From assembly GCA_005884455.1 (NCBI GenBank), contig VBCH01000210.1, positions 1-60,716 of the forward strand: DNA of 60,716 bases. The letters run 5' to 3'. A model generated the notes under the pieces. The model made no database searches. It was not told the DNA's origin and worked only from the letters and a program-made list of their open reading frames with translations. This document shows positions 14,395-33,185 of the stretch, one piece after another. Source of the stretch: Betaproteobacteria bacterium. GTDB lineage: Bacteria > Pseudomonadota > Gammaproteobacteria > Burkholderiales > SG8-39. Numbering within the stretch: position 1 is the stretch's first letter; the number at the start of each line of letters is the position of its first letter. Made by a program: the position numbers and the translations under genes.

Positions 14395-14416
14395 GCGCAG
14401 AGGTATTGGAGACCCA

Positions 14417-15688: not shown

Positions 15689-15690
15689 CT

Positions 15691-16623
15691 TTGAAAATAG
15701 CCATCGTCGGCCAGCAGGATTTTGGCAAGGCGGTTCTCGAAGCCTTTCTCGCTCGTGGCGACGAGATCGCCGGCGTCTTCTGCGCGCCGGAGAAGGAGGG
15801 AGCGAAGGCCGATCCGCTCAAGGCAGCGGCGCTGGAAAAGGGGCTCAAGATCTTCCAGTTCCAGTCGCTGCGCAACAAGGAAGCGCTCGACGCGATGCGC
15901 GCGCTCAACGCCGACATCGGGATCATGGCCTTCGTGCTGCAGTTCGCGCCGCAGGAGTTCGTGAAGATCCCGAGGAAGGGCACGATCCAGTACCACCCGT
16001 CGCTCCTGCCGAAATACCGCGGGCCGAGTTCGATCAACTGGCCGATCATACGCGGCGACGCCAAGACCGGACTGTCCATCTTCCGCCCGACCGACGGATT
16101 GGACGAAGGCCCAGTGATCCTGCAGAAGGAAACGCCGCTCAGCGCGGATGACACGCTCGGCAGCGTCTATTTCGATCGCTTGTTCCCGATGGGGGTCGCG
16201 GCGATGATCGAGGCTGCAGATCTGGTGATGGCCGGCAAGCATCGCGAGACGGTTCAAGACGAGACCCGCGCGAGCTACGAAGGCTGGTGCCGCGCCGCCG
16301 AGGCGAAAATCAACTGGGCGAGCCACGTCGATTTCACTTACAACCTGATACGCGGGTGCAATCCGGCGCCGGGCGCCTGGACCACGCTGGGCGGAAAGAA
16401 ACTGCAGATCTTCGACAGCCGCAAGCATCTGTTCCGCACCTTCGGCGCGGTCAAGGGCAAGATCGGCGAGATTTCCGAGATCGGCGCGGCGAGTTTCTTC
16501 GTGACCGCTCAGGGCGGACGAATCGAAGTCCTCAAGGCAAAGCACGAGGACGGCAAGAAAGTATCCGCGGCCGAACTCGTAGCCCAGAACGGCCTCACTC
16601 CGGGCACGGTGCTCGGGAGCTGA
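15691..16623 (+). CDS. Formyltransferase resembling the N-terminal 10-formyl-THF hydrolase/transferase domain of ALDH1L1 (would usually be annotated as Fmt)
   Basis: MKIAIVGQ..FG, KADPL, YHPSLLPKYRG, DGLDEG, LFPMG, SYEG, IRGCNPAPGAW; TTG start 2 nt after the frc stop. Confidence 0.85.
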   Translation: MKIAIVGQQDFGKAVLEAFLARGDEIAGVFCAPEKEGAKADPLKAAALEKGLKIFQFQSLRNKEALDAMRALNADIGIMAFVLQFAPQEFVKIPRKGTIQYHPSLLPKYRGPSSINWPIIRGDAKTGLSIFRPTDGLDEGPVILQKETPLSADDTLGSVYFDRLFPMGVAAMIEAADLVMAGKHRETVQDETRASYEGWCRAAEAKINWASHVDFTYNLIRGCNPAPGAWTTLGGKKLQIFDSRKHLFRTFGAVKGKIGEISEIGAASFFVTAQGGRIEVLKAKHEDGKKVSAAELVAQNGLTPGTVLGS

Positions 16624-16855
16624 CTCGCGCCGGCGCGGCGGCCTGCTCGGCTGGCGCGGTGGATCGTCGCATTCTCCTTCGCGGCTTTTGCTGCCGAAGG
16701 GAAATTTGACTGCCCCCACTTTTCACTGTAAAAATGTCCCCTAGAGCATTGTTTATTCAGTAACTTGCTGCTCTTCATCGGCGAGAGGGGGTTAGCGTAA
16801 AATGCGAGCACTCGGAGCGCATCCCTTACAACAATAAAAACAAACGGGAGAGGCT

Positions 16856-19429
16856 ATGACCAAAGCGGGCTTCTGGAAAAAAGACTGGTTTCTCTGCCTG
16901 GGGGTGTCGCTCGTGATGCTCGCGGCCGGCGGGACCCAGCTGATCGAGGCCCTCGAGCGCTTCGCGTACGACTGGGGTGTCCGGGCCTCGGCGCGAACCC
17001 CGTCAGACAAGATTTCGGTGATCGCGATCGACAAGCGCAGCATCGACAATATCGGTCGCTGGCCGTGGTCGCGCGAGGTCCATGCAAAGATGATCGAACG
17101 CCTCGCGGACGCGAAAGCCAAGGTCATCGGATACACGGTTTTTTTCTCTGAGCCGCAGCTCGATCCGGGCCTCGTCTATGTCAACAAGCTTCTCGAGGCC
17201 TACCAGCGTCTCGTGCCGGTGAACGCAGATCCGGGCGCGCCGCCCCGCGGCGTTTCGCCTGAGCTGCTTCAAATCGGCGCGACGCTGCAGGAAGCCGAGA
17301 GCGCGCTCAACACCGACAGGAAGCTCGCCGAGAGCTTCGCCAAGGCGGGCAACGTGGTGCTGCCGCTGCTGTTCACCTTCGGCGAGCCGCGCGGCAAGCC
17401 CGACAAGCCTCTTCCCGAATTCGTGCGCAAGAACGCGCTCTCGATCCAGGGCGGCAGTGGCGATCTGCCCCTCTTCACCAGCGCCGTCGAAGTGCCGATC
17501 GTTGACAGTCTGGGCGCCGCCGCAGCCGCGGTGGGGCATCTGAACTCGGTCCCCGACGTGGACGGAGCGATCCGCACCGAAGCGCTCGCGGTCACCTACT
17601 ACGATGAATACTACCCGTCGCTCGCGGTCATGATGGTTGCAAGGAGCCTCAATCTGACCGCCAAGGACATCAAGATCCGTCCCGGCGAAGCGCTGCAAAT
17701 CGGCAATTTCCGGGTGAGCGCGGATCCGACGATGCAGATGTTCACGTATTTCTACAAGGACCGGGAGGGCAGGCCGGCCATCCAGGAGGATTCGTTCTAC
17801 GACGTGGCGAGCGGCAAGATCCCGCTGGAAAAGTACCGCGACAAGATCGTGCTGATCGGACCGACCGCCGCCGGGGTCGGCAGCATATTCGTCACGCCGG
17901 TGAATCCGGCCATGCCGGCCGTGGAGCTTCAGGCGCATACGGTCTCGTCGCTCTTGCAGGGGCATTTTTTCGTCGCACCCACCTGGGGCTGGGTCGTCGA
18001 GAGGTCGGTTTATCTCCTGGTGGCGGTCTATCTGATCGCCTTGCTGCCGCGGCTTTCCGCCGGCGTCGGTGCCGTGGTCAGTGCCGGCATCGTGGCGGTT
18101 CTGATCGCCACGCACTTCGTGCTCATGACCGGCCAGGGCATGTGGCTGCAATTCATGCTGCCGGCCGCCTTGCTGGTCATCGGTCACGTGTTGCTCGTTA
18201 CAAAGCGCTTCGTCGTCACCGAGCGCGGGAAAGAGGTATCCGACGCGCAGTCGGCAGCCAACGCGCGCATGCTCGGCCTCGCGTTCCAGGGGCAAGGCCA
18301 GCTCGACATGGCTTTCGATTACTTCCGCAAGGTGCCGCTGGACGACACCCTCATGGATAACCTCTACAACCTTGCGCTCGACTTCGAGCGCAAGCGCCAG
18401 TTCAACAAGGCCGAAGCCGCATTCCGCTACATGGCCGACTACAACCCGAAGTTCCGCGATCTCGAAGCGAGGTTGTCGCGCGCCAGGCAGATGTCGGAAA
18501 CTCTCATCCTCGGCGGCGGGCAGACTCACCCCGGCGGGACCCTCGCGCTCGGGGGGGGCGCCGAGAAGCCTATGCTCGGCCGCTATCGGGTGGAGAAGGA
18601 GCTCGGCAAGGGCGCCATGGGCGTCGTGTATCTCGGCAAGGATCCGAAAATCGGACGCGTCGTGGCGATCAAGACCATGGCGCTTTCCCAGGAATTCGAG
18701 GCGGACGAGCTCGCCGAGGTGAAGGAGCGGTTCTTCCGCGAAGCCGAGACCGCAGGGCGTTTGAGCCACCCGAACATCGTGACCATCTTCGACGCGGGCG
18801 AAGAGCACGATCTGTGCTACATCGCGATGGAACTCCTGAAGGGTCAGGATCTGGTGCCGTTCACCAAACCAGGCAGCACGCTCTCGACCGACAAGGTCGT
18901 CTCGATCGTGGCGAGAGTGGCCGACGCGCTCGGCTACGCGCACAGGCAGAACGTGGTGCACCGGGACGTGAAGCCGGCCAACGTCATGTACGAGCCTGAA
19001 AGCGACACCGTCAAGGTGACCGATTTCGGAATTGCCCGCATCACGGATTCGTCCAAGACCAAAACCGGAATGGTGCTCGGCACGCCGTCCTACATGTCGC
19101 CGGAACAGCTCCAGGGCAAGAAGATCGACGGGCGCAGCGATCTGTTCTCGCTGGCGGTAAGCCTGTATCAGCTTATTTGCGGCAAACTACCGTTCGAGGG
19201 GGATTCGATGGCGCAACTCATGTTCAGGATCGCGAATGAAGATGCGCCCGATATCCTGCAATTCCACCCGTCCCTGCCGCCGGCTCTGGTCGCCTTCCTT
19301 GACAGGGCGATGGCCAAGGACGCGGGCGAACGTTACCAGACAGGCGAAGAATTCGCGGGCTCATTGCGAAGGACTGTGGGCGGTCCTTCCGCCGCGGCGG
19401 TCGGCGTCGGGGTCGACATCAGCCTGTGA
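16856..19429 (+). CDS. Membrane Ser/Thr protein kinase: CHASE2, 3 TM, TPR-like linker, Hanks kinase
   Basis: IAIDKRS...GRWPWSR (CHASE2); LGKGAMGVVY, VAIK, HRDVKPAN, DFG, GTPSYMSPEQ. Confidence 0.95.
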   Translation: MTKAGFWKKDWFLCLGVSLVMLAAGGTQLIEALERFAYDWGVRASARTPSDKISVIAIDKRSIDNIGRWPWSREVHAKMIERLADAKAKVIGYTVFFSEPQLDPGLVYVNKLLEAYQRLVPVNADPGAPPRGVSPELLQIGATLQEAESALNTDRKLAESFAKAGNVVLPLLFTFGEPRGKPDKPLPEFVRKNALSIQGGSGDLPLFTSAVEVPIVDSLGAAAAAVGHLNSVPDVDGAIRTEALAVTYYDEYYPSLAVMMVARSLNLTAKDIKIRPGEALQIGNFRVSADPTMQMFTYFYKDREGRPAIQEDSFYDVASGKIPLEKYRDKIVLIGPTAAGVGSIFVTPVNPAMPAVELQAHTVSSLLQGHFFVAPTWGWVVERSVYLLVAVYLIALLPRLSAGVGAVVSAGIVAVLIATHFVLMTGQGMWLQFMLPAALLVIGHVLLVTKRFVVTERGKEVSDAQSAANARMLGLAFQGQGQLDMAFDYFRKVPLDDTLMDNLYNLALDFERKRQFNKAEAAFRYMADYNPKFRDLEARLSRARQMSETLILGGGQTHPGGTLALGGGAEKPMLGRYRVEKELGKGAMGVVYLGKDPKIGRVVAIKTMALSQEFEADELAEVKERFFREAETAGRLSHPNIVTIFDAGEEHDLCYIAMELLKGQDLVPFTKPGSTLSTDKVVSIVARVADALGYAHRQNVVHRDVKPANVMYEPESDTVKVTDFGIARITDSSKTKTGMVLGTPSYMSPEQLQGKKIDGRSDLFSLAVSLYQLICGKLPFEGDSMAQLMFRIANEDAPDILQFHPSLPPALVAFLDRAMAKDAGERYQTGEEFAGSLRRTVGGPSAAAVGVGVDISL

Positions 19430-19445
19430 GCTTCGTTGAAGCATC

Positions 19446-20270
19446 ATGACTTTATCGGGAGCGCTTGAAGTCGCGAGTTGTACCGATCCCGGAATGGTCA
19501 GGTCCCATAACGAGGACTCGATCGCGTCGGATGGGGATCAAGGCCTCGTCGTGTTGGCCGATGGTATGGGGGGATACAACGCGGGCGAGGTGGCGAGCGG
19601 CATGGCCACGACGGTGATCATCACCGAGCTGCAGCAGCTGCTGGAGAAGAGAGTTCCATACGAGATCGACGCACACAGCGGCCAGCTCGTCGCGCACCAA
19701 CTGTTGCACGAACAGATCGCCAAGGCGAACACGTCGATCTATCAGGCCGCACAGAGCCAGCCTCAGTATGCCGGCATGGGGACGACCTTGGTCGTCGCCC
19801 TGTTCTACGACAACAAGATGACCGTCGCGCACATCGGAGATTCGCGGCTGTACCGGCTGCGCGGCGGCGAGCTGCGGCAGGTCACCAAAGATCATTCGCT
19901 TCTCCAGGAGCAGATCGACAGCGGCGTGATCACACCGCAACAGGCCCGGCAGTCCCAGAACAAGAATCTGGTTACGCGCGCGCTCGGTATCGATCCGATC
20001 GTCGAAGCGGAGATCCACGACTACGAGACGCAGCCGGAAGACATTTATCTCCTCTGTTCGGACGGCCTTTGTGATATGGTGAGCGACGACGACATCGGCC
20101 TCGCGCTGCAGACGCTCAGCTCCAACTTGAAACTATGTGCGCAGCATTTGGTGCAAACGGCCAATGATAACGGGGGCCGAGACAATATTTCGGTAATACT
20201 GGTCCGGGTGCTGCGGGACTACCCCGCACCGCGCAGCATCGTGGGCAAGATGATGAGCTGGTTCAAATAG
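19446..20270 (+). CDS. PP2C-type Ser/Thr phosphatase (Stp1/PppA family)
   Basis: RSHNED, ADGMGG, HIGDSR, LCSDGL, GGRDNI. Confidence 0.95.
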   Translation: MTLSGALEVASCTDPGMVRSHNEDSIASDGDQGLVVLADGMGGYNAGEVASGMATTVIITELQQLLEKRVPYEIDAHSGQLVAHQLLHEQIAKANTSIYQAAQSQPQYAGMGTTLVVALFYDNKMTVAHIGDSRLYRLRGGELRQVTKDHSLLQEQIDSGVITPQQARQSQNKNLVTRALGIDPIVEAEIHDYETQPEDIYLLCSDGLCDMVSDDDIGLALQTLSSNLKLCAQHLVQTANDNGGRDNISVILVRVLRDYPAPRSIVGKMMSWFK

Positions 20271-20301
20271 CTTGAAATAGTTTGAGCAGAGGGATACTGC
20301 T

Positions 20302-21078
20302 ATGGCGAAGCTGATACTCAGTATGGACGGCCTGGTCCTCAAGGAGATCGCCCTGACCAAGGAACGTACCACCATCGGCCGCAAGCCACACAACGACATC
20401 CAGATCGACAATCTGGCAGTGAGCGGGGAACATGCCGTCATCGTCACCATCCTGCAGGACTCGTTTCTCGAGGATCTCGGCAGCACCAACGGCACCGTGG
20501 TCAACGGACAGCCGATCAAGAAGCACTTCCTCCAGAACAACGACATCATCGAGCTCGGCAAGTACAAGCTGAAGTACGTGAACGAAGCCGTGGCGGGGCA
20601 AGCCAAGGCAGCGGACTTCGAGAAGACCATGGTGCTCCGCCCCGGTTCGGTGAAGGCGGCTACCGCGGCGCCTGCCGCCTCCGCGCCGGCCGGCGCCGCA
20701 GCGGCGGCCCCTGTGGCGGCTGCCGCAGGCGCAAGAAATTTAAGCGACACCGTCGCAGGCCAAACTGCGACGGCCGCACCGGTCGCCCCCCCTAAGCCGG
20801 CAGCCGCGCCTCAAAAAAATGCGGCGCTGCAGCTTCTCTCCGGGGCGAATGCCGGCAAGGAGCTCGATCTCACCAAGCCGCTCACGACACTCGGTAAACC
20901 CGGCGTCCAAGTGGCCGTCATCACGCGCCGGCCACAGGGCTTTTTCATAACCCACGTAGAGGGGGCAAGCTTTCCGGTGGTGAACGGCAAGACCCTCGAC
21001 GCCCAAGCGCACTCCTTGAACGACCATGACGTGATCGAACTTGCCGGGGTCAAGATGGAATTCTTCCTCAAGACCTGA
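20302..21078 (+). CDS. Double FHA-domain protein with Ala/Pro-rich linker
   Basis: First FHA is near-canonical (IGR, VSGEHA, DLGSTNGT); linker with EKTMV and Ala/Pro runs; second FHA is degenerate. Confidence 0.92.
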   Translation: MAKLILSMDGLVLKEIALTKERTTIGRKPHNDIQIDNLAVSGEHAVIVTILQDSFLEDLGSTNGTVVNGQPIKKHFLQNNDIIELGKYKLKYVNEAVAGQAKAADFEKTMVLRPGSVKAATAAPAASAPAGAAAAAPVAAAAGARNLSDTVAGQTATAAPVAPPKPAAAPQKNAALQLLSGANAGKELDLTKPLTTLGKPGVQVAVITRRPQGFFITHVEGASFPVVNGKTLDAQAHSLNDHDVIELAGVKMEFFLKT

Positions 21079-21113
21079 GCCTCGGCTCCTCAGACCCGAT
21101 CCCGGGAGGAAGA

Positions 21114-23432
21114 CTGAAGCAGCACATCGTCCGGATCGCGCTCGGCCTGCTGGTAGTTCTGGTATTCGTAGGCCACGTCGTAGGAAATGCCTACAAGAGC
21201 TACCGCATCGGATTCATCAACCAGCTCGACCACATCATCTACGACTACCGGCTCCGGCTGACCATGCCGGGCACGCCCGACGACCGTATCGTCATCCTCG
21301 ACATCGACGAGCGCAGCCTGGATTCCCGAGCGCTCGGCCGCTGGCCTTGGAGTCGCGACAAGATCGTTGCACTGCTGCAAAAGCTTTTCGACAAATACGG
21401 CGTGCTCATAATCGGCTTGGACGTCGTATTTGCCGAACCCGACGAGAGCTCAGGCCTGCCGGTGCTCGAGAAGCTGGCCGGGACCCGGCTGAAGGACGTA
21501 GGGCCGTTCCAGTCGGCCCTGAAGGAATTGCGCCCGGCGCTCGACTACGACGCGAAGTTCTCGAATTTTCTCCGCGGCCGTCCGGTGGTTCTCGGCTACT
21601 ACTTCAATAGCGAAGAAAATGCGGTGGAAAACGGATCCCTTCCGGAGCCTGTTTTCCCGCCAGGCACGTTTGCCGGCAGGAAAATCGACTTCTTCGCGTG
21701 GAAAGGCTACGGCGCCAACTTGCCCGAGTTTGCCAAGGTAGCCAACGCCGGGCATTTCAACTCACGCGTGGACGATGATGGCGTGTCGCGGCGGGTTCCG
21801 ATGCTCGTGGAATACCCGCAACGCAACGGCAGCTACTACGAAGCCCTGTCGCTCGCGGTAGTGCGCCTGTATCTGGGCATGAAGGAAGCAGCTCGCGGCA
21901 AGATCGACACGGTTACCTTGCCCAAGGTAATCCCGGGGACGAACCCCGACCGCTTCATCTCCAAGACCTACACCGGTTTGGAGTGGCTTGAAGTCGGGCC
22001 GCTCAGAATCCCGGTAGACGATGAAGTCACCGCGCTGGTTCCCTATCGCGGTCCAAGGGGCAGCTTTCCGTATATTTCGTTTGCCGATATATGGTCGGAC
22101 AAAGTGCCGGTGGAAATGCTGAAGGGAAAGATCGCCTTGATCGGCGCTTCTGCCCCGGGCCTGTTCGATCTTCGCTCGGCCCCGGTGGGGGAGGGCGAGA
22201 CCTCCTCCGGGGTCAGGAAGGAAGGCAATGTCTATCCCGGGGTCGAGATTCACGCCAACCTCATCGCCGGGATACTCGACGGCAAACTGAAGCACAAACC
22301 GCCTTACATGCTCGGAGCGGAGCTGTTGGTGCTTGTCCTCGGCGGTATCGTGCTCGCCTTGCTCATACCGATGCTCGCGCCGCTTTGGGCCACCGCGACG
22401 ACGGTGACCGGGATGGCGCTCATCACGCTGTTCGACCTGTGGATGTGGTCCTACGCGGGCTTGGTGCTGCCGCTTGCCGCCTCAGTGCTCATGATAGTGA
22501 CCTTGTACACGGTCAACATGGCCTACGGATATTTCGTCGAGACGCGCTCGAAGCGCCAGTTCGCCGAGTTGTTCGGGCAATATGTGCCTCCCGAGCTTGT
22601 GGGCATCATGGCGGAAGACCCCGAGCAGTACACCATGGCGCCGAAGAGCACCGATCTCACGATACTATTTTCCGATGTGCGCGGCTTCACCAGCATATCG
22701 GAAGCGCTGAGTCCCGAGCACCTTCGCGAATACATCAACGAGTACCTCACCGACATGAGCAATATCATCCGCGGCAAGCACCGCGGCACGCTCGACAAGT
22801 ACATCGGCGACGCGATCATGGCCTTCTGGAACGCTCCGGTGGAAGATAAAGATCACCCGCGCAGCGCGGTTCTTGCGGCCCTGGAGATGCAGCGCGAGTG
22901 CGGTATGCTGAACAAGAAATTCACCGCGCGCGGCTGGCCGACCCTCAAGATCGGCATCGGCGTCAACACGGGGAACGTCCGGGTCGGGGACATGGGATCG
23001 AAGGAACGCAGGGCGTACACCGCGATGGGAGATGCCGTCAACGTCGCTTCCCGGCTGGAAGGGCGCACCAAGTACTACGGCGTGGGGATACTCGTCGGGG
23101 AAACAACGCGGACGCTGGTGAAGGACGTGGTTTTCAGGGAGATCGACAAGATCAAGGTGAAGGGCAAGGACGAGGCAATCACGATCTACGAGCCAGTGGG
23201 ACTGGAGTCCGAGGTCGAGAGGAAGGTTCTGGACGAGCTCAAGCTCTGGCACCAGACGATCAGGTCTTACCGCTCCCGCCAATGGGATCAGGTGGAGGTC
23301 AACCTCCTCAACCTCCTGCGCATGAACCCCGGGTGCGCTCTCTACGAGTTGTACGCGAAGGAAGTGGCGGTCAAGCGCAGAAACCCACCGCCAGCCGAAT
23401 GGGCAGGCGTTACCGTTTTCGACGAGAAATAA
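21114..23432 (+). CDS. CHASE2 class III adenylate cyclase; start probably CTG at 21114 (or 21075), upstream of the ORF-track ATG at 21264
   Basis: In-frame N-terminal TM (KQHIVRIALGLLVVLVFV) precedes 21264; CHASE2 (GRWPWSR), 3 TM, FSDVRGFT, DKYIGDA (Lys, ATP-specific), YTAMGDAVNVASRLE, VKGK. Confidence 0.93.
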   Translation: MKQHIVRIALGLLVVLVFVGHVVGNAYKSYRIGFINQLDHIIYDYRLRLTMPGTPDDRIVILDIDERSLDSRALGRWPWSRDKIVALLQKLFDKYGVLIIGLDVVFAEPDESSGLPVLEKLAGTRLKDVGPFQSALKELRPALDYDAKFSNFLRGRPVVLGYYFNSEENAVENGSLPEPVFPPGTFAGRKIDFFAWKGYGANLPEFAKVANAGHFNSRVDDDGVSRRVPMLVEYPQRNGSYYEALSLAVVRLYLGMKEAARGKIDTVTLPKVIPGTNPDRFISKTYTGLEWLEVGPLRIPVDDEVTALVPYRGPRGSFPYISFADIWSDKVPVEMLKGKIALIGASAPGLFDLRSAPVGEGETSSGVRKEGNVYPGVEIHANLIAGILDGKLKHKPPYMLGAELLVLVLGGIVLALLIPMLAPLWATATTVTGMALITLFDLWMWSYAGLVLPLAASVLMIVTLYTVNMAYGYFVETRSKRQFAELFGQYVPPELVGIMAEDPEQYTMAPKSTDLTILFSDVRGFTSISEALSPEHLREYINEYLTDMSNIIRGKHRGTLDKYIGDAIMAFWNAPVEDKDHPRSAVLAALEMQRECGMLNKKFTARGWPTLKIGIGVNTGNVRVGDMGSKERRAYTAMGDAVNVASRLEGRTKYYGVGILVGETTRTLVKDVVFREIDKIKVKGKDEAITIYEPVGLESEVERKVLDELKLWHQTIRSYRSRQWDQVEVNLLNLLRMNPGCALYELYAKEVAVKRRNPPPAEWAGVTVFDEK

Positions 23433-23447
23433 CGGGGGCGCCGTTCC

Positions 23448-24215
23448 ATGAAGCTGCGAATCCTGGGGTGCAGCGGCGGAATAGGAGGCCGGCATTTGCG
23501 CACCACCTCGATGCTCCTGGACAACGACATTCTCATCGACGCCGGGACGGGGGTCGCCGACCTTTCGCTCACCGAACTCTCTCTCATCGATCACATTTTT
23601 CTCACGCACTCGCACCTCGATCACGTCGCGAGCATTCCGTTCATGGTCGATACCGTCGGAGGGATGCGTGACCAGCCGGTCACGCTTTGGGCCGTTCCGG
23701 CAACGCTGGAGATCTTGCGCAGTCACATCTTCAACTGGAGCATCTGGCCCGATTTCGCTCAGATCCCGAGCCCCGAAAAACCCTTCCTTCGATACCGCGA
23801 GATCCAGGTCGGTGACACGGTCGAGCTGAAAAAGCGCAAGCTCACAGCGCTGCCGGCAAATCATGTCGTGCCGGCAGTCGGTTATCACCTCGATTCCGGC
23901 AGGGAAAGCCTGGTGTTTACCGGCGACACTACGACCAACGACCCCCTTTGGGCGGTGGTCAACAAGATTTCCAACCTGAAGTATCTGATCATCGAGACCG
24001 CCTTTTGCAACCGCGAAAGGGAGTTGGCGGTCATTTCGAAGCACCTTTGTCCGAGCATGCTCGCCGAGGAGCTCGCAAAACTCGAACGTAGCGCGGAGAT
24101 CTATATCACGCACCTGAAGCCCGGCGAAATCGAGCTCACGATGCAGGAAATCGAGGAGGACGCCGGTCAATACCGACCGCGCATGCTGCAAAACAATCAA
24201 GTTTTCGAGTTTTGA
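23448..24215 (+). CDS. MBL-fold (class II-like) 3',5'-cyclic nucleotide phosphodiesterase
   Basis: LGCSGG, IDAGT, THSHLDH, HIFNWSIWPDF, FTGDT, ITHLKP; follows the cyclase. Confidence 0.85.
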   Translation: MKLRILGCSGGIGGRHLRTTSMLLDNDILIDAGTGVADLSLTELSLIDHIFLTHSHLDHVASIPFMVDTVGGMRDQPVTLWAVPATLEILRSHIFNWSIWPDFAQIPSPEKPFLRYREIQVGDTVELKKRKLTALPANHVVPAVGYHLDSGRESLVFTGDTTTNDPLWAVVNKISNLKYLIIETAFCNRERELAVISKHLCPSMLAEELAKLERSAEIYITHLKPGEIELTMQEIEEDAGQYRPRMLQNNQVFEF

Positions 24216-24233
24216 GGAGCGGGGGAACGCGCG

Positions 24234-25316
24234 ATGGGCGCAAACAGAGTACGCATCGAGACGCTGAAGACTCTTGAACCTGTGGCTTCGCTGCCCGAAG
24301 CAAGGCTCCATGAACTCGTCGGTCTCTGTCACGTAGAGACCGCGAGCAAGAATTCGAATCCGTTTCTCGTGCGCGGGATCGCGGACCAGGCGGTTTATCT
24401 ACTGCGTGGAGAGCTCGTGCTCACCTATCCGGATGGATCTTCGAAAGTGCTGGTAGGGGGCTCCGAGCGTTCGCGATATCCACTGGGTAGGCGGGGGGGG
24501 GATGCTTTCACCAGCGCCAAGGCGATCACCGACGTCGAGCTGATGCGCATCGACGACGACCTTCTCGACGTCATGGCGACCTGGGATGAAGCCGCGTCCG
24601 CCGGCCACTCGGAAAGGCAGGAGAGGCGGGAGACCGAGGGGAGTTCACTCGCCAGCTGGACGCTCATGTCCGGAATGTTCAGCGTTAGCAGCCTCAAATA
24701 CGGCGAGTTCTCGCGGCTTCCGCCGGCCCACATCAACGAGCTGCTGCGCCGTTTCGAGCGCATTAACGTCAAAAAGGGAGACGCGGTGATTCGCGAGGGC
24801 GCTGAAGGGGACTTCTACTTCGTGATCGAAACCGGCCGCTGCAAGGTCGAACGGATGGTCGGAGGAGTCACGATGCTGCTCGCCGAGCTGAAAAGTGGCG
24901 ATGCGTTCGGCGAGGAAGCGCTGGTGTCGGAAGCCAGGCGAAACGCCACCGTTACGATGAAGACGGACGGAGCGCTCCTGCGGCTGTCCAGGAAGGACTT
25001 TGCCGCGCTCCTCCGGGAGCCGCTGCTGCACCGCCTCTCGGCACAGGAGGCACGCGACAAGATCGCCAATGGAGCCCAGTGGATCGATGTGCGCTATCCA
25101 TCGGAATATCAATACGACAAGCTTGCGGGGGCCATCAACATTCCCTTGTCGGAGATCCGCAACGCATTCGGCGTGCTGGACAAAGGGAAAGAGTACGTGC
25201 TCTATTGCCAGAGCGGCCGACGCAGCGCTGCCGCGGCATTTCTCCTCGCTCAGCGCGGGTATCGCGCGTTCGTGCTCGCGGGTGGACTCTGGGGGGAGAC
25301 GAAGCGTGGAGCATGA
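24234..25316 (+). CDS. Tandem cNMP-binding domain plus rhodanese protein
   Basis: Second cNMP domain FGEEAL...RNATV; rhodanese IDVR...GAINIP...YCQSGRRS...LAGG. Confidence 0.9.
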   Translation: MGANRVRIETLKTLEPVASLPEARLHELVGLCHVETASKNSNPFLVRGIADQAVYLLRGELVLTYPDGSSKVLVGGSERSRYPLGRRGGDAFTSAKAITDVELMRIDDDLLDVMATWDEAASAGHSERQERRETEGSSLASWTLMSGMFSVSSLKYGEFSRLPPAHINELLRRFERINVKKGDAVIREGAEGDFYFVIETGRCKVERMVGGVTMLLAELKSGDAFGEEALVSEARRNATVTMKTDGALLRLSRKDFAALLREPLLHRLSAQEARDKIANGAQWIDVRYPSEYQYDKLAGAINIPLSEIRNAFGVLDKGKEYVLYCQSGRRSAAAAFLLAQRGYRAFVLAGGLWGETKRGA

Positions 25317-25555
25317 GGAGACCGGAGAAGCCTCGCGCGCCGAGCTTCGCCCGCTGAGCGGCGCTCGGATCCCGGCAGGCGCGATTCTCGCTTGGCGACG
25401 AAGCGGGCGGTCGGGCCGGCTTTGCAGTGCCTTGGGCCTTTCGGAGCCGGTGTGTGGAAAACGCCCTCGCCGGGGGCAGCCTCGACGGCTGAACAGTGGT
25501 AAAGTAATTGATTATCAGGATATTTCATGATGATGAACCTTAAGGTGGATTGCCT

Positions 25556-27925
25556 ATGAGCGCGGTATTGCAAACGCATCCGGGCGCTGCTTCAGACGTC
25601 AATAGCAGGCTGACGTTTCAGAAGAATCTCCAGACCGTCACCAACAAGATCCACGCCACGAGCAACGTGGACGAAATCATGCTGGAAGTCAGCGCCGACA
25701 TTTGTACCCTCTTCAACGCCGACCGGCTGACGATCTATACCGTGGGTGAGGACAAACAGACCATCGTCTCCAAGGTCAAGACCGGCCTCAACTCCTTCAA
25801 GGATCTCAAGCTGCCGATCGCCGAACACTCGATCGCGGGCTACGTCGGGTTGTCGAAGAGGATGCTCAACCTGAGGGACGTGTACGACGAGGGCGAGCTC
25901 AAGTCGCACAACCCGAACCTGCGCTTCCTGCAGGAAGTCGACAAGCGCACCGGTTATCGCACTAAGCAGATGCTAGTCGCGCCCGTTGCGGAGCCGGGCA
26001 GCAGCGAACTCGTCGGCGTGGTCCAGTTGATCAACAACAGGGCGGGCGTGCCGTTCGGACAGCTGGCCGAGGAGGGGGTGGCGGAACTCTGCCAGACGCT
26101 GGCCATCGCGCTCAAGCAGCGCCAAAAGCCGCAGGTCCTCAAGACGAAGTACGACTTTCTGGTGAGCGATGCCGTGATCTCGGCCGCCGAGTTCGAGCTC
26201 GCGGCGCGGTCGGCACGCAAGAAGGCCGTCGACGTCGAGACGGTGCTGATCGAGGAGTTCCAGGTCAAGATTCCCGCGATCGGCGCGGCCCTTGCGAAGT
26301 TCTTCGGAGTGCCGTACGAACCGTTCAAGCCCGACCGCATCAAACCGATGGATCTGCTGAAAAACCTGAAACGCGATTACGTCGAGTCCAACCAGTGGGT
26401 ACCGATCGAGGAAGCGAAGGAAGGTCTGGTCATCCTTTGTCTCGACCCCGAGAGGGTGAAGAGCTCCAGAATCGTCCAGAATGTCTTTGCGGCGCGCAAG
26501 CTCGCGTATCGAGTTACGACTCTCAAAGAGTTCAGGGAAACGCTCAAGGCGTTCTACGGGGCGGAAGCCGCCGACACCGGCGACATCGGCGACATGCTTT
26601 CGGATCTCGAAGAGGACGAGATTCCCGAGGTGGTCGGCGGCGACGACGATGTGTCTGCAGCGGCCGACAACGAGCTGGTCAAGCTGGTCAACAAGATCAT
26701 CATCGATGCGTACAACCAGGGAGCGTCAGACATTCACATCGAGCCCTACCCCGGCAAAGGCAAGACCGAGATCAGGCTGAGGAAGGACGGAACGCTGGTT
26801 CCCTATATCGAGGTCCCGGGTTCCTACCGAAACGCGATGGTGGCGCGCATCAAGATCATGTGCGATCTCGACATTTCCGAGAAGCGCAAGCCGCAGGACG
26901 GGAAAATCAAATTCAAGAAATTCGGACCGCTCGATATCGAGCTGCGCGTGGCGACGATCCCGTCCCAAGGCGGGGTCGAAGACATCGTCATGCGTATCCT
27001 CGCGGCGGGGGAGCCCATCCCCCTGGACAAGCTCGGCCTTTCGCCTTCCAATCTGCCAAAGCTCAAGGAAACGGTGAGCAAGCCTTACGGGCTGTTCTTT
27101 TGCTGCGGTCCGACGGGCTCGGGGAAGACGACGACGCTCCACTCGGTACTGGGTTTTCTCAACACACCAGATACCAAGATCTGGACGGCGGAGGATCCGG
27201 TCGAAATCACGCAGAAGGGCCTGCGTCAGGTCCAGGTCAACAAGAAGGCCGGCCTCGATTTCGCAGTCGTGATGAAATCGTTTCTGCGGGCCGATCCCGA
27301 CATCATCATGGTCGGCGAGATGCGCGACAAGGAAACCACGTCCACGGGCATAGAAGCGTCGCTGACAGGCCACCTCGTGTTCGCCACCTTGCACACGAAC
27401 AGCGCGCCGGAGTCGATCACCCGGTTGCTGGACATGGGCATGGACCCCTTCAACTTTGCCGATGCGCTGCTCGGGATCCTTGCGCAGCGGCTGGCAAAGC
27501 GTCTGTGCGGCAAATGCAAGCAAGCTTACTCGCCGGGCGCTGACGAAATGAAGCACATGCTCCAGGAATACTGCTCCGAGCTGCTCAACACCGGACCGTT
27601 CAAGAGGGACGCCAAGTCCGCCTACGAGAACGTCTACCGGGATTTGGCGAGAAGCTACGCCGGCGACAAAGGTCACTTCACGCTCTATCGGGCCAAGGGC
27701 TGCGACGCCTGCGGCAATTCCGGCTACAAAGGCCGGGTCGGCCTCCATGAACTACTGATCGCCTCCGACACTCTCAAGAAGCTTATCCAGGAGCACGCGC
27801 GTGTCGCGGAAATCCTCGCTGTCAGTCTCGAGGAAGGCATGCGAACCCTGAAGATGGATGGGATCGAAAAGGTACTTCAGGGAATTACCGACATGCCGCA
27901 GGTGCGCGCGGTCTGCATCAAGTAG
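25556..27925 (+). CDS. GAF-domain GspE/PilB family assembly ATPase
   Basis: N-terminal GAF (DKRTGYRTKQML..P..GVVQLIN); ASDIHIEP, EKRKPQDG, GPTGSGKTTT, EDPVE, DPDIIMVGEMRD, TGHLVFATLHTN, CGKC/CDAC. Confidence 0.93.
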   Translation: MSAVLQTHPGAASDVNSRLTFQKNLQTVTNKIHATSNVDEIMLEVSADICTLFNADRLTIYTVGEDKQTIVSKVKTGLNSFKDLKLPIAEHSIAGYVGLSKRMLNLRDVYDEGELKSHNPNLRFLQEVDKRTGYRTKQMLVAPVAEPGSSELVGVVQLINNRAGVPFGQLAEEGVAELCQTLAIALKQRQKPQVLKTKYDFLVSDAVISAAEFELAARSARKKAVDVETVLIEEFQVKIPAIGAALAKFFGVPYEPFKPDRIKPMDLLKNLKRDYVESNQWVPIEEAKEGLVILCLDPERVKSSRIVQNVFAARKLAYRVTTLKEFRETLKAFYGAEAADTGDIGDMLSDLEEDEIPEVVGGDDDVSAAADNELVKLVNKIIIDAYNQGASDIHIEPYPGKGKTEIRLRKDGTLVPYIEVPGSYRNAMVARIKIMCDLDISEKRKPQDGKIKFKKFGPLDIELRVATIPSQGGVEDIVMRILAAGEPIPLDKLGLSPSNLPKLKETVSKPYGLFFCCGPTGSGKTTTLHSVLGFLNTPDTKIWTAEDPVEITQKGLRQVQVNKKAGLDFAVVMKSFLRADPDIIMVGEMRDKETTSTGIEASLTGHLVFATLHTNSAPESITRLLDMGMDPFNFADALLGILAQRLAKRLCGKCKQAYSPGADEMKHMLQEYCSELLNTGPFKRDAKSAYENVYRDLARSYAGDKGHFTLYRAKGCDACGNSGYKGRVGLHELLIASDTLKKLIQEHARVAEILAVSLEEGMRTLKMDGIEKVLQGITDMPQVRAVCIK

Positions 27926-27968
27926 CGGGTCGCTCCACGCGGGCTGCCGCCCAGACCGGGGATTGCTC

Positions 27969-29624
27969 TTGGAGACCGTTGAAGATCTGTTTCGCCGCCT
28001 CGAGCAACTCAACGAGATAGGCGCGGCGCTGTCCCAGGAAAAGGACATCGACCACCTGCTCGAGAAAATCCTCCTTGCGGCGAAGGCGATCACGCGCGCG
28101 GCCGGCGGCACCTTGTACGTGCTGGAGCCCTCCGACGAGGGACCACAGCTCAGGTTTGCGATCATGCGAAACGAGGCTATGGGCATCGCGATGGGCGGGA
28201 CCACCGGCAACCCGATACCGTTCTATCCGGTGCACCTCTACGGAAAGGACGGAACACCGAACAACCAGATGGTCGCCGCCTACACCGCCCTAACTGGCAA
28301 GACGGTGAATATCGCCGATGCATATTCGGGAGAGGGTTTCGATTTCTCCGGGACGCGCAATTTCGACAAGAAGACCGGGTACCGCTCGAAGGCCTTCCTC
28401 ACGGTGCCGATGAAGAACCACGAAAGCGAGATAATCGGCGTCCTTCAGCTTATCAACAGCGTGGATCCCGCGACGAACGAGATCGGGCCTTTCTCGCATT
28501 CGGACCAGCGCCTCGCGGAATCGCTCGCTTCTCAGGCCGCCATCGCGCTCACCAATCGCAACCTCATCAATCAATTGGAGGAGCTGTTCGAGTCCTTCAT
28601 AGAGCTCATCAACACCGCGATCGACGAAAAGTCCAAGTATACCGGCGGACACTGCCAGCGTGTCCCGGTGCTCACCATGATGCTTGCCGAAGCCGTCAAT
28701 GAGACGACTGAAGGGCCGCTCGGAAACTTCAACATGAGCGAGAAGGACCGTTACGAGCTGAAAATAGCGGGCATGCTGCATGACTGCGGGAAAGTTACGA
28801 CGCCTGTCCACGTCGTGGACAAGGCGACCAAACTGGAAACAATCTTCGACCGCATCAGTCTCGTCGACACGCGGTTCGAAGTGCTGAAACGGGATCTGGA
28901 AATCGCCGCGTTGAAGGAGAAGCTTAAGCTCCTTGGCGAATCGGCGCTGGATGAGGTGGTTGCGCGCAAGCGGTTCGCCCAAATCGATCAGACGTTGCGG
29001 GACAGGTTGCGCCAAGTCGATGCCGATCGCGAATTTCTGCGTCACGCCAATGTCGGAGGTGAGGCCATGGCCCCTGAAGAGCGGGAAAGAGTGAACCGGA
29101 TCGGCACCGAGTACAAGTGGATCGACGTTTCAGGAGGGACGGCGGATTTCCTCACCGATGATGAAATCAAGAATCTTACGATCTCGCGGGGTACGCTCAC
29201 CGACGAGGAGCGCGAGAAGATCAATCACCATATCGTTGCGACCATCAAGATGCTGGAAGCGCTGCCGTGGCCGAAGCATCTGAGTCACGTACCGGAGTAC
29301 GCCGGGGGTCACCACGAGCGCATGGACGGGAAGGGTTATCCTCGTGGATTGAAGCGGGAGCAGATGTCGGTGCAGGCGAGAGTCATGGGGATCGCGGATA
29401 TTTTCGAGGCGCTGACCGCCAAGGACAGACCTTACAAGCGCGGCAAGACGCTTTCCGAGTCGTTGAAGATCCTCGGGAACTTCAGGCTGAACGGACATAT
29501 CGACCCGGATTTGTTCGACATATTTGTCCGCAAGAAGATCTATCTCCGCTACGCCGAGCAATTTCTCGATCCCGATCAGATCGACGAGGTCGACGAAAGC
29601 AGAATACCCGGATTTGCCGCTTGA
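27969..29624 (+). CDS. GAF plus HD-GYP phosphodiesterase (start approximate, TTG at 27963 or 27969)
   Basis: GAF FDKKTGYRSKAFLTVP; YTGGHC.RV, LHDCGK, HHERMDGKGYP, ADIFEAL. Confidence 0.92.
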   Translation: METVEDLFRRLEQLNEIGAALSQEKDIDHLLEKILLAAKAITRAAGGTLYVLEPSDEGPQLRFAIMRNEAMGIAMGGTTGNPIPFYPVHLYGKDGTPNNQMVAAYTALTGKTVNIADAYSGEGFDFSGTRNFDKKTGYRSKAFLTVPMKNHESEIIGVLQLINSVDPATNEIGPFSHSDQRLAESLASQAAIALTNRNLINQLEELFESFIELINTAIDEKSKYTGGHCQRVPVLTMMLAEAVNETTEGPLGNFNMSEKDRYELKIAGMLHDCGKVTTPVHVVDKATKLETIFDRISLVDTRFEVLKRDLEIAALKEKLKLLGESALDEVVARKRFAQIDQTLRDRLRQVDADREFLRHANVGGEAMAPEERERVNRIGTEYKWIDVSGGTADFLTDDEIKNLTISRGTLTDEEREKINHHIVATIKMLEALPWPKHLSHVPEYAGGHHERMDGKGYPRGLKREQMSVQARVMGIADIFEALTAKDRPYKRGKTLSESLKILGNFRLNGHIDPDLFDIFVRKKIYLRYAEQFLDPDQIDEVDESRIPGFAA

Positions 29625-29682
29625 TCCCGCTCGACCCGACATCGGTCGCCGGGATTGGCGCTCCTTCTGGATTCCATCGATG

Positions 29683-30021
29683 ATGGCAATTTTTCAGTGG
29701 TTCGATACCGAGGAAATCGACGAGTTTGCACGGTCGATCGCCGCCGAACTCGTCAAGCGCGCGCCCCCCGCGGGTCTGGAGGCGCAGGACGAGAAGGCGT
29801 CAAAGCGGCTAAGAAATACGCATCAGGCGGTCTTCTCCCGTGCCGAGCAATTCGCGCGTACCCACAAGCTCAATATCTACAAGAAAGCGCGCCTGGGCAA
29901 TCAATTCCGATGGGCGCTGAAGGAAGCCGGATACCCCAAGGCGTTCGTCGAGACGTGGACCTACGAGCTGATCACTCTGATTGCGCTCAAATCGGCGCCT
30001 CCCCCGACACCGGGTCGTTGA
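29683..30021 (+). CDS. Hypothetical protein (~112 aa) immediately upstream of the GT41 gene
   Basis: ATG at 29680/29683, MAIFQWFDTEEIDEFARSIA...; stop 4 nt before the next start. Confidence 0.65.
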   Translation: MAIFQWFDTEEIDEFARSIAAELVKRAPPAGLEAQDEKASKRLRNTHQAVFSRAEQFARTHKLNIYKKARLGNQFRWALKEAGYPKAFVETWTYELITLIALKSAPPPTPGR

Positions 30022-30025
30022 GCGT

Positions 30026-32419: not shown

Positions 32420-32572
32420 CGCCGCGTCAGCCAATGCGACCGAGCCGGTGACGTTCAGCGTCAGACTGTGCCGCATTTTAGATCGAAGCCGTTCCTTTCC
32501 ATAGCCGAATCAAGCTCTGTAAATGACTTAAAATGTCATAAAAACAATGGAATAAGTCCGACGTTCCAAGGG

Positions 32573-32588
32573 CGGCATGCGACTTGCT
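32573..32588 (+). promoter_or_regulatory. Sigma54 (-24/-12) promoter of the pilin gene
   Basis: CGGCATGCGACTTGCT = GG-N10-GC; AT-rich tract upstream (32510-32555). Confidence 0.75.
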
Positions 32589-32634
32589 CTTACCAACCCA
32601 GGCGCCATATCGGCGTGTCGAGAAGGGAGTATCC

Positions 32635-33132
32635 ATGAGAGCGATTCAGAAGGGCTTTACCTTGATCGAGTTGATGATCGTAGTTGCGATCATCGGCATT
32701 CTGGCCGCAGTAGCACTACCGGCGTATCAGGACTACAGCAACCGGGCGAAGATATCCGAAGTGATCCTGGCTGCGAGCGCATGCCGCACCTCGATTACCG
32801 AGGTCTTCCAGAGTGCCACCAGCGCGCCTGGGATCAACAACTGGGGCTGCGAAGTCACGAGCGCCACGACCGGCGGGGCCTCGAAGTACGTGCAATATAT
32901 TGCCACGGATGCCAACGGGAAGGTCCAAGTGACGATCCAGGGCTTTGCTCCGGCGACTAATATCAACGGTACGGTGGTCACCTTGGTCCCGCTGAAAAAC
33001 CCCGGTGGGGTGCCGGCGGCCATGAGCTCTACCGACGTGGGTGGAATGACGGTCTTCGGCTGGCGTTGTGGCAACCAGGGCGACGGCACGAACTTGAACC
33101 CGAAGTTCCTGCCTGGCTCCTGCCGCGGCTAA
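32635..33132 (+). CDS. pilA: Type IVa major pilin
   Basis: MRAIQKG|[27 protein letters not shown] prepilin motif; C-terminal WRC...PGSCRG disulfide loop; own promoter and terminator. Confidence 0.95.
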
Positions 33133-33148
33133 GCGCAGCTTCGTAGTG

Positions 33149-33181
33149 AAAAAAGGTACCCTTCGGGGTACCTTTTTTTTT
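33149..33181 (+). terminator. Strong Rho-independent terminator after pilA
   Basis: AAAAAAGGTACCC-TTCG-GGGTACCTTTTTTTTT. Confidence 0.92.
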
Positions 33182-33185
33182 CCCT

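Follow-up and report, generated by a model that had tools for sequence, protein, structure and literature searches.

What does a pilus-type ATPase do behind a run of genes for protein phosphorylation and cyclic-nucleotide signalling? The question is raised by a stretch of 60,716 nucleotides from a Betaproteobacteria bacterium (order Burkholderiales, SG8-39 in the GTDB lineage; GenBank assembly GCA_005884455.1, contig VBCH01000210.1), which we call the window. Eight open reading frames (ORFs) lie on its plus strand at 16856-29624; Pfam and NCBIfam identify their products as a CHASE2 kinase, a PP2C phosphatase, an FHA protein, a CHASE2 class III cyclase, a metallo-β-lactamase (MBL) fold hydrolase, a protein that joins a cyclic-nucleotide-binding (cNMP) domain to a rhodanese, a PilB-type ATPase with an N-terminal GAF domain (GAF-PilB) and a GAF-HD-GYP phosphodiesterase. 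With revised starts, the gaps between them are 16, 31, 35, 15, 18, 239 and 37 nt. A preliminary description, made from the sequence alone, had read these genes as a co-oriented, tightly spaced signalling island for phosphothreonine (pThr), cAMP and c-di-GMP, and the ORFs and family matches bear out the genes, their spacing and their domains. We suggest that they form a post-translational module in which cAMP gates extension of a type IVa (T4a) pilus and pThr provides an accessory switch, a reading to which we give about an even chance.

At the centre of this reading stands the seventh gene (25556..27925, plus strand), which encodes a PilB-type hexameric ATPase of about 789 residues with the layout GAF-N1D-N2D-CTD and matches the Pfam families T2SSE (1.8e-112), MshEN (9.5e-8) and GAF (3.5e-7); its ORF is open from 25550, and the ATG at 25556 is the most likely start. 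The protein belongs to the GspE/PilB secretion ATPase superfamily (Pfam T2SSE); it has the Walker A lysine, the Walker B glutamate, two histidines and four cysteines, and each of these is kept in all of 79 orthologues. Among proteins of known structure it is closest to T4a PilBs, namely Myxococcus xanthus PilB (3jc8, 1.7e-109), Geobacter PilB and Thermus PilF, all ahead of GspE. It is not a canonical PilB: it scores 479.7 bits on the PilB equivalog TIGR02538, for which the cut-off is 675.65 and on which canonical PilBs of the same order reach 700-870 bits, and it scores 438.7 bits on the GspE model. In a tree of ATPase cores (24 of 26 rows kept) all GAF-PilBs form one clade (support 100/100) that is sister to canonical PilB (87/78), and the other paralogues of the window's genome fall outside it on long branches of unsure placement. 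The lineage is large, as at least 6561 proteins in a protein collection share the GAF-N1D part; their names, where given, are generic ("ATPase, T2SS/T4P/T4SS family", "GspE/PulE family protein").

The N-terminal domain of this motor resembles a cyclic-nucleotide receptor. The GAF domain aligns to both cAMP-bound GAFs of Anabaena CyaB2 (1ykd, E 4e-26 overall), and also matches PDE10A GAF-B (2zmf, 5.9e-9), PDE2A GAF-B (1mc0, 3.2e-8) and the GAF of PmGH. These domains share with it the pattern IAG...TGYRT...P...GV.Q..N, and the IAG, TGYRT and Q.IN residues are invariant in 44 PilB orthologues; by these sequence features the GAF domains of both the ATPase and the HD-GYP protein fall into the cNMP-binding subfamily (CyaB2, PDE2/5/6/10). 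GAF-PilB differs from these proteins in having a single GAF, not a tandem, and in having as its output a secretion-type ATPase, not a cyclase or phosphodiesterase.

The c-di-GMP motifs of related motors, in turn, are missing. We searched for the 24-residue MshEN motif in a relaxed form, [RKPN]hGxxhhxx[GAS]hhxxxxhxxxhxx[QNKRYWST], taken from PMC5013675, and found it in none of 80 GAF-PilB orthologues; it is present in the paralogues on contigs C67 and C265 of the same genome. Aligned to M. xanthus PilB, the protein has other residues at the Arg, Gly, Gly and Gln positions of both motifs, and the Pfam MshEN match covers only the C-terminal subdomain (residues 252-340). The motor appears, on this comparison of sequences, to have gained a cNMP-type sensor and lost a c-di-GMP one. 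With the c-di-GMP motors Vibrio cholerae MshE, M. xanthus PilB and Clostridium perfringens PilB2 it has in common the N1D-N2D-CTD core, Walker A and B, the His box and the tetracysteine motif, and also, going by the parts of PMC5013675 and PMC11656802 consulted, the principle that the N-terminal domain of the motor reads a nucleotide messenger; it stands apart in having neither of the two c-di-GMP motifs (80 of 80), in the extra GAF in front and in forming its own clade.

Which machine would such a motor drive? The window holds no platform, secretin or PilM gene, and the question turns on the rest of the genome (3.6 Mb in 311 contigs, 96 % complete), which encodes six ATPases of PilB/GspE size in addition to ones of PilT/PilU size; none reaches the PilB equivalog cut-off. 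The ATPase on C195 is a GspE above cut-off with an adjacent platform gene, that on C84 is a TfpB above cut-off, and those on C67, C265 and C168 are PilB/GspE-like, each with an adjacent platform gene. On another contig, a pilC-pilD-zapD locus has a CorC-type transporter gene at the usual place of pilB and no adjoining ATPase. There is a single pilM, beside a secretin, and a single pilMNOPQ set, and no canonical PilB was found in the 96 %-complete genome. With pilC-pilD orphaned, the natural pairing is of GAF-PilB with this T4a machine and the PilA of the window: the ATPase is probably the T4a extension motor that works with PilMNOPQ, PilC and PilD. As to the other systems of this genome, there are six platform (T2SSF) loci, one of them partial at a contig end; ATPase and platform genes lie on C195, C67, C84, C265, C168, C141 and C155, and among the systems are a type II secretion system (T2SS), one of TfpB type and others that have the c-di-GMP motifs of MshEN in canonical form.

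The wider distribution of the two motors fits this assignment. We surveyed an even sample of the order, 301 genomes each at least 90 % complete, and found a GAF-N1D orthologue in 143 of them and in 60 of 145 genera, nearly always in single copy. For the cross-survey with canonical PilB one weak match (G097) was dropped, leaving 142 carriers; G050, an unpublished genome, is in the sample and nothing rests on it. Canonical PilB occurs in 167 of the 301 genomes: 58 have both motors, 84 only GAF-PilB, 109 only canonical PilB and 50 neither. Related genomes are not independent and we give these counts without a statistic. In the window's own family, GAF-PilB is present in eight of eight genomes and canonical PilB in none. 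GAF-PilB is therefore, to judge from these inventories, probably the only PilB-type motor for the T4a machine in the window's genome and in most carriers.

The prepilin gene itself lies 3' of the cluster. It encodes a T4a major prepilin, PilA (32635..33132, plus strand; Pfam Pilin 3e-14, N_methyl 1e-9), with a classic T4a prepilin leader; PilA is the likely substrate of GAF-PilB. The preliminary description had noted that the cluster runs on towards pilA, and this link is conserved: 33 of 58 loci have a prepilin gene on the same strand no more than 7 kb downstream of PilB, in most cases immediately behind the HD-GYP gene. About 45 nt upstream of the pilA start, at 32573-32588, there is a sigma-54-like motif (CGGCAT-N5-TTGCT). 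Of 38 loci, 25 have a similar motif no more than 260 nt upstream of the prepilin gene; the entire window, counted on both strands, contains six matches. The motif suggests a transcript for pilA that is separate from that of the PilB and HD-GYP genes. In the window, pilA is flanked by two possible glycosyltransferase genes, for a tetratricopeptide (TPR) protein with a GT41 C-terminus like that of O-GlcNAc transferases (29981-32419, 5' of pilA) and for a TPR/PMT_2 membrane protein of GT-C type, below cut-off (33186-34877, 3' of pilA). The two may be a pilin glycosylation pair; the arrangement is found only in the closest relatives.

The cluster as a whole recurs well beyond these relatives. A scan of one genome per species gave at least 618 loci with a relative, of which we kept the best 80, at 64-92 % identity; they come from Rhodocyclaceae, Nitrosomonadales, Gallionellales, Sulfuricella, Usitatibacteraceae, Oxalobacteraceae and many metagenome-assembled genomes. 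Among 48 loci with at least 8.8 kb upstream, tblastn located the MBL gene in 43, the cyclase in 37, the PP2C in 36, the FHA gene in 35, the kinase in 25 and the cNMP-rhodanese in 20. All six stand in the order of the window in 14 of these loci, and all but the cNMP-rhodanese in another 10. A variant of Oxalobacteraceae type (7 of 48) has the cyclase divergent on the other strand, joined there by the MBL gene in four of the seven, and has no pThr genes. Cultured strains among the loci (Noviherbaspirillum sp. Root189, Undibacterium pigrum DSM 19792, isolates of Massilia and Rugamonas) have either this pThr-free variant or only part of the cluster. On the downstream side, 58 loci extend for at least 4.5 kb; the HD-GYP gene occurs in 53 of these, and in 46 it stands directly behind PilB. 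Because the arrangement recurs across the order, it is not a product of chance, and gene order extends far beyond close relatives, which had been set beforehand as the check on its meaning. The term "island" holds insofar as the co-oriented cluster is real, but the GC content of the window has no sharp boundary; this is a conserved chromosomal cluster, a regulatory module of the order, and not a mobile or compositional island.

Outside the order, a distant GAF-PilB of the same architecture occurs in 8 of 300 genomes of the class. Six such genes in six genomes of other orders (L096-L101, 41-44 % identical) have none of the other seven genes within 8-10 kb; one of them, L098, lies next to genes for an ABC transporter, a lytic transglycosylase (SLT) and MotAB. 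The architecture of GAF-PilB is accordingly older than the cluster.

What could supply the ligand of the GAF domains? The fourth gene encodes a CHASE2 protein with a class IIIb adenylate cyclase domain (21114..23432, plus strand; Pfam CHASE2 5.3e-49, Guanylate_cyc 6.2e-23). The cyclase is best aligned to a phytochrome-linked cyclase (6fht), to Pseudomonas aeruginosa CyaB (3r5g, 2.3e-32) and to 2w01. Both metal-binding aspartates and the lysine, threonine, asparagine and arginine of the active site are each present in 51 of 51 orthologues, as expected for a class III enzyme with the Lys/Thr pair that the preliminary description had read as specifying ATP, and this claim holds. Like CyaB, the protein shows DK..GD and YT..G..VN.ASRLE, where 2w01, which we take to be a guanylate cyclase, has DE and YG.

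The start of the cyclase gene needed revision. The ATG-initiated ORF spans 21264-23432, and the frame stays open 5' of this first ATG, without any in-frame ATG, GTG or TTG upstream of 21264. Start is most likely the CTG at 21114, which is preceded by GGGAGGA; the 50 extra codons (21114-21266 region) encode an N-terminal membrane helix. Both CHASE2 receptors of the cluster would then have such a helix, which is evident in the kinase and present in the cyclase only with the CTG start. At the corresponding position the closest relative (L015) also has CTG, most orthologues have TTG or GTG and a few have ATG, and the cyclase family appears to rely on weak start codons throughout.

The next two genes encode candidates for removing and reading cAMP. 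The 255-residue MBL-fold hydrolase (23448..24215, plus strand) matches Pfam PDEase_II at 54 bits (cut-off 23.7) and Lactamase_B_2 at 7e-18, the former over profile positions 83-146 of 340 only. Its best match of known structure by sequence is yeast PDE1 (4ojv, 4.3e-8), through the HxHLDH and FNxxIWPD motifs. With the HxHLDH region and the MBL metal ligands it carries the signature of class II phosphodiesterases, and H54, H56, D58, H59, H139, D160 and H222 are invariant in 44 sequences. Foldseek places an AlphaFold2 (AF2) model of high confidence (pLDDT 94.8) next to YhfI, ELAC/RNase Z, Apyc1, which degrades cyclic nucleotides, and PDE1 (TMq 0.81). That the protein is a cyclic-nucleotide phosphodiesterase resembling the class II enzymes is plausible from these features, though not proven. 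The 360-residue protein that follows (24234..25316, plus strand) has a CAP-type cNMP_binding domain (2.4e-19) and a rhodanese domain (1.4e-15); the phosphate-binding cassette (FGE and R.A) is intact in 32 of 32 orthologues and the rhodanese cysteine loop in 29 of 32. Residues 1-160 have no Pfam match even at E 10, and our impression is that they form a degenerate cNMP domain. The protein does not resemble an output of the CRP/Vfr type, as its cNMP domain is fused to the rhodanese and it scores 23.7 bits on the CRP model (cut-off 266). No DNA-binding domain was found by Pfam in any of the eight proteins, in agreement with the earlier statement that the cluster has no transcription factor as output.

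Directly behind PilB follows the gene for the GAF-HD-GYP phosphodiesterase (27963..29624, plus strand; HD_5 2.8e-42, GAF 2.3e-12, HD 5.3e-11), whose ORF is open from 27858 and whose start is most likely the TTG at 27963 or 27969, just 3' of the PilB stop codon. HDCGK and HHERMDGKGYP identify it as an HD-GYP protein, and among its orthologues the HD motif is kept in 69 of 69 and HHExxDGxGYP in 68 of 69. Its best solved relative is PmGH (4mcw, 9.8e-32), the ligand of whose GAF domain is given as unidentified in the sources consulted. The GAF domain of the window protein matches PDE5 (1.2e-16), CyaB2 (2.9e-9), PDE2A (6e-9) and also PDE10A, and is 35 % identical to the PilB GAF over 105 residues (E 6e-10). 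A precedent for its control may be Tlr0485, a GAF-HD-GYP protein of Thermosynechococcus that papers citing Enomoto et al. (2020) describe as a c-di-GMP phosphodiesterase that cAMP activates. The architecture and the intact HD and HHExxDGxGYP motifs are common to these proteins, in the case of Tlr0485 as far as its description goes; in the window protein, by contrast, about 100 inserted residues, helical in nature, part the HD from the GYP segment, and its gene stands behind PilB. Insertions in HD-GYP domains that follow GAF domains are a subject of PMC12943098, in the part consulted. Of a c-di-GMP branch the cluster thus has the eraser only, with its motifs intact; the motor is without MshEN motifs, and a role for it as c-di-GMP reader does not hold.

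The pThr branch occupies the first three genes. The kinase (16856..19429, plus strand; 857 residues; Pfam CHASE2 2.8e-55, Pkinase 4.5e-54) is a Hanks-type Ser/Thr kinase with an N-terminal transmembrane (TM) helix, a periplasmic CHASE2 domain, TM helices, a juxtamembrane stretch with weak TPR matches (residues 389-575) and the kinase domain; its VAIK, HRD and DFG motifs are kept in 27 of 27 near-full-length orthologues. The 274-residue PP2C-type Ser/Thr phosphatase (19446..20270, plus strand) scores 254.8 bits on NCBIfam Stp1_PP2C_phos (cut-off 230), with all three PP2C motifs in 46 of 46 orthologues. With catalytic residues conserved in this way in both branches, the view of the cluster as holding writer, eraser and reader for pThr and for cAMP is well founded. 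The pThr genes are nevertheless its accessory part, with the kinase in 25 and the PP2C in 36 of 48 loci.

The reader is a two-domain FHA protein of 258 residues (20302..21078, plus strand; Pfam FHA 5.6e-22). It consists of a canonical FHA domain (residues 1-97), a DFEKTMVLRP motif, a disordered linker rich in alanine and proline and a degenerate FHA-like C-terminal domain (173-257); the AF2 model likewise shows two all-beta domains, predicted with high confidence, and a disordered linker. The N-terminal domain has the FHA fold with the Gly-Arg, Ser-x-x-His and Ser/Thr-Asn residues, and across 45 aligned sequences there is no variation at G26, R27, S41, H44, S61, T62, N63 or T109. Its model superposes on an FHA domain with a VIA Z of 17.0 and a root-mean-square deviation of 1.4 Å over 95 residues, and EmbR, OdhI and GarA are among its top structural matches. 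The preliminary description had called it a double FHA protein. A homologous second copy does exist, as the profiles of the two domains align at 92.6 % probability in hhalign (E 4.6e-7, 70 columns), but it is degenerate: the SxxH segment is deleted, GR has become GK and the S.N residues are lost, so that the residues for pThr binding are gone. Pfam gives the C-terminal domain a Yop-YscD_cpl match below cut-off (E 0.0033), its profile has no match among sequences of known structure at E 0.01 or better, and its nearest protein-atlas cluster is auto-named "putative FHA domain-containing protein" (score 0.96), which is a lead only. It is highly conserved all the same (24 of 88 columns invariant), which implies a fixed partner, and we think that this copy probably serves as a fixed protein-binding domain.

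A candidate for that partner comes from elsewhere in the genome, where the remaining FHA domains occur only as fusions with class III cyclase domains, in two proteins of 328 residues (C260, L113:3527-4510) and 304 residues (C246, L114:33-944). By Rosetta-stone logic, and since the FHA gene ends 35 nt before the cyclase gene, the stand-alone FHA protein may by analogy act on the cyclase. The genome also encodes a receiver-cyclase-Hanks-kinase fusion of 993 residues (C74, L115:3527-6505); the fusion proteins indicate that phosphothreonine and cyclic-nucleotide signalling have been joined repeatedly in this organism. A threonine of the PilB linker (Thr343, in TGDI) was considered as a site for the FHA domain and rejected, as the residue is not conserved.

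Combining these observations, we envisage the following circuit. The CHASE2 cyclase would convert a periplasmic cue to cAMP, which would bind the CyaB2/PDE-type GAF at the N-terminus of PilB and switch the activity or the docking of the motor. cAMP would also bind the related GAF of the HD-GYP protein and turn on c-di-GMP hydrolysis, as in Tlr0485, and the MBL enzyme, resembling class II phosphodiesterases, would reset cAMP; the cNMP-rhodanese may be a third, optional cAMP reader. The CHASE2 kinase, the PP2C and the small FHA protein would form an accessory phospho-switch, in which the kinase acts on the motif around Thr109 in the FHA protein or on the juxtamembrane region of the kinase itself, this phosphorylation is read by the canonical FHA domain in the manner of GarA and OdhI, and the degenerate domain holds the protein to a partner from the module. 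We favour the cyclase as this partner because FHA and cyclase domains are fused in the two paralogues. The domains, catalytic residues, gene order, clade position and gene inventory are direct observations; we infer the ligand, the gating, the phosphosite and the FHA partner. A bolder version, which we offer as tentative and think more likely wrong than right, is that the motor clade exchanged c-di-GMP for direct cAMP control. A pulse of cAMP would then start extension within seconds and activate the GAF-HD-GYP protein, removing c-di-GMP and silencing competing c-di-GMP systems, with the second CHASE2 receptor setting the gain through a GarA-like FHA switch on the cyclase or phosphodiesterase.

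Several observations weigh against the proposed module, and most of them bear on one of three alternatives. The ATPase might power another machine, such as a T2SS, a type IV filament of MSHA-like or other kind, or a DNA-uptake system, with another paralogue serving pilA. The six ATPases of suitable size, the absence of platform, secretin and PilM genes from the window, and the nearly equal scores on the GspE and PilB models, the latter below cut-off, would all fit this; in the 58 of 142 carriers that also have canonical PilB, GAF-PilB is an extra or specialised motor, and a canonical pilB could lie hidden in a gap between the 311 contigs. We nonetheless regard it as unlikely, since the ATPases on C195, C67, C265 and C168 have platform genes of their own, C84 encodes TfpB and pilC-pilD has no ATPase left to it, the tree makes canonical PilB and not GspE the sister of the GAF-PilB clade, 33 of 58 loci have a T4a prepilin gene behind the motor, and 84 of the 142 carriers have no canonical PilB. 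Rather less unlikely, in our view, is that the GAF domains take some other ligand, be it cGMP, a metabolite or a cofactor, or only dimerise, and that the cAMP pathway runs in parallel with the rhodanese protein or a target elsewhere as its output. GAF domains bind a variety of ligands, and binders of cAMP and of cGMP are not told apart by sequence; of the NKFDE-type signature the PilB GAF has kept only part (NNR...F...EE, judged by eye); and the ligand of the PmGH GAF, as noted, is reported as unidentified. The lone distant GAF-PilBs mean that the GAF does not need the cyclase of the cluster, the genome has five further class III cyclase genes, and the cluster already contains a CAP-type reader of cyclic nucleotides. 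As for turnover, the fold of the MBL protein is about equally close to YhfI and ELAC/RNase Z as to PDE1 and Apyc1. Against this alternative stand the cNMP-binding GAFs that are the best solved relatives of both GAF domains, the invariance of IAG, TGYRT and Q.IN, the precedent described for a cAMP-activated GAF-HD-GYP protein, and the company that PilB keeps, which is far more often the cyclase (37 of 48) and the MBL gene (43 of 48) than the cNMP-rhodanese (20 of 48).

The third alternative concerns the pThr switch. The kinase, PP2C and FHA protein could be a separate unit that shares the operon without acting on the motor and has cyclases generally, or envelope or cell-cycle proteins, as its targets, and we think this possible, though well short of an even chance. 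The trio is the most dispensable part of the cluster and is absent from its divergent variant; nothing observed ties it to PilB in particular, and no PilB threonine or serine column tracks the presence of the FHA gene (51 against 13 sequences, a weak test as the groups differ in phylogeny); and with 11 Pkinase matches and two cyclase-FHA fusions in the genome, pThr signalling there is broad. A strict pairing of FHA protein and cyclase is weakened by seven of 48 loci that keep PP2C, FHA and MBL genes without cyclase or kinase, and by eight that keep the cyclase without PP2C and FHA. On the other hand, in those same seven loci PP2C and FHA stay beside MBL, PilB and HD-GYP, the gaps are only 16-35 nt, and the invariant columns of the degenerate FHA domain imply a fixed partner. 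A trio of this composition also controls type VI secretion system (T6SS) assembly in the PpkA/PppA/Fha1 model, and the FHA protein has a weak match to the TagH model. That the trio regulates a T6SS encoded elsewhere is nevertheless very improbable: the match reaches 40.5 bits where the cut-off is 120.25, the trio is linked to PilB across the order, and a search of the 96 %-complete genome for the T6SS sheath protein VipB/TssC gave no match, while a control search found the family in E. coli. The statement that the window itself holds no T6SS structural genes was also correct. Of the conditions named beforehand as refuting the preliminary interpretation, the two open to computation, a gene order confined to close relatives and a T6SS target elsewhere, both failed to refute it. 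Two points count against our proposal independently of any rival, namely that the cluster encodes no diguanylate cyclase or c-di-GMP receptor and that the best 80 loci lean towards close relatives of the query. On balance, the interpretation given in the preliminary description is partly supported.

Environmental RNA gives a weak hint that the cluster is expressed. Four soil RNA libraries from three studies yield contigs that match the window at 90-99 %, and so stem from relatives; together they span most of the cluster. In one library single contigs bridge kinase, PP2C and FHA (17962-20493), FHA, cyclase, MBL and cNMP-rhodanese (20464-24907), PilB and HD-GYP (27427-28692), and HD-GYP and the TPR gene (28806-30312). 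Such libraries may include DNA, contigs are not the same as transcripts, and the uncovered parts of the cluster carry no weight. Over the bin that holds pilA (32276-32842) the summed contig depth is 39-283 in three of the four libraries, far above the rest of the region; pilin contigs from other organisms may add to this depth, and it is not an expression measure. A scan of 16400-35600 for promoters and terminators found no excess over shuffled sequence (3 promoter-like sites against a shuffled mean of 4.1, 17 terminator-like against 16.2); one promoter-like site lies at 16706-16735, upstream of the kinase. A simple pattern found no CRP-like site upstream of the kinase, PilB or pilA, and Rfam at its gathering threshold found no RNA family in the whole window.

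The genes on either side are of other kinds. Upstream of the cluster lie genes of formate and oxalate metabolism, and directly 5' of it, in the region 11941-16623, are family III CoA-transferase and formyltransferase-like genes, which in the window follow a thiamine pyrophosphate (TPP) enzyme whose ORF has about 250 extra N-terminal residues. The same pair occurs in ten related loci (L009, L015, L023, L024, L025, L035, L055, L059, L073 and L084); this neighbourhood is conserved, and nothing evident connects it with the signalling genes. Downstream, a gene for a BepA-like M48 protease accompanies those for the TPR-GT41 protein, the prepilin and the TPR/PMT_2 protein.

How does the cluster compare with systems already described? 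In the Pil-Chp/CyaB/Vfr system of P. aeruginosa cAMP is likewise tied to T4a pili, and the cyclase of the window is close to CyaB and has the same Lys/Thr residues. In Pseudomonas, however, the output is transcription via Vfr (PMC11656802, in the part consulted), whereas the window cluster has no transcription factor, its predicted readers are the GAF domains and the cNMP-rhodanese, and its sensor is CHASE2. PpkA/PppA/Fha1 has in common with it a membrane Hanks kinase, a PP2C and an FHA gene beside a secretion-type machine; here, however, the FHA protein is small, has two domains and falls below the TagH cut-off, the kinase carries CHASE2 and no T6SS sheath gene was found in the genome. The FHA protein can be compared with the small stand-alone FHA proteins GarA and OdhI of Actinobacteria (30-31 % identity, Z about 16), and it too has a conserved threonine motif outside the FHA domain, a candidate phospho-acceptor; in the window protein this motif is C-terminal and not N-terminal to the FHA domain, a second, degenerate FHA domain is added, and the OdhI model gives 57.8 bits against a cut-off of 200.

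We found no description of a GAF-bearing PilB or of this cluster in full-text searches of the literature, although an earlier listing in the supplements of PMC5013675 is possible. The word "GAF" does not occur in the main text of that paper, as far as it was available, and neither "GAF" nor "FHA" occurs in the available part of a 2024 review of PilB regulation (PMC11656802). All parts of the cluster belong to known families; their combination, the GAF-PilB lineage, the loss of its c-di-GMP motifs and the conserved wiring are new and appear unstudied. The GAF-PilB lineage is also common, with carriers among many Betaproteobacteria of soil and water that include nitrifiers, iron oxidisers and wastewater Rhodocyclaceae.

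To our knowledge, post-translational control of pilus extension motors is by c-di-GMP, through MshEN or FimX-PilZ, and cAMP acts on pili only via transcription. A motor with a cNMP-type GAF of its own would give twitching, adhesion, DNA uptake and entry into biofilms a control point that is both new and simple. If the bolder version of our proposal is right, direct gating by a cyclic mononucleotide would be a first for a secretion-type ATPase, in a circuit that wires three messengers (pThr, cAMP and c-di-GMP) together without transcription. The cluster is a compact and testable case of cross-talk between Hanks kinases, cAMP and c-di-GMP, and its two CHASE2 receptors, made readable through a pilus phenotype, could help to find the ligands of CHASE2.

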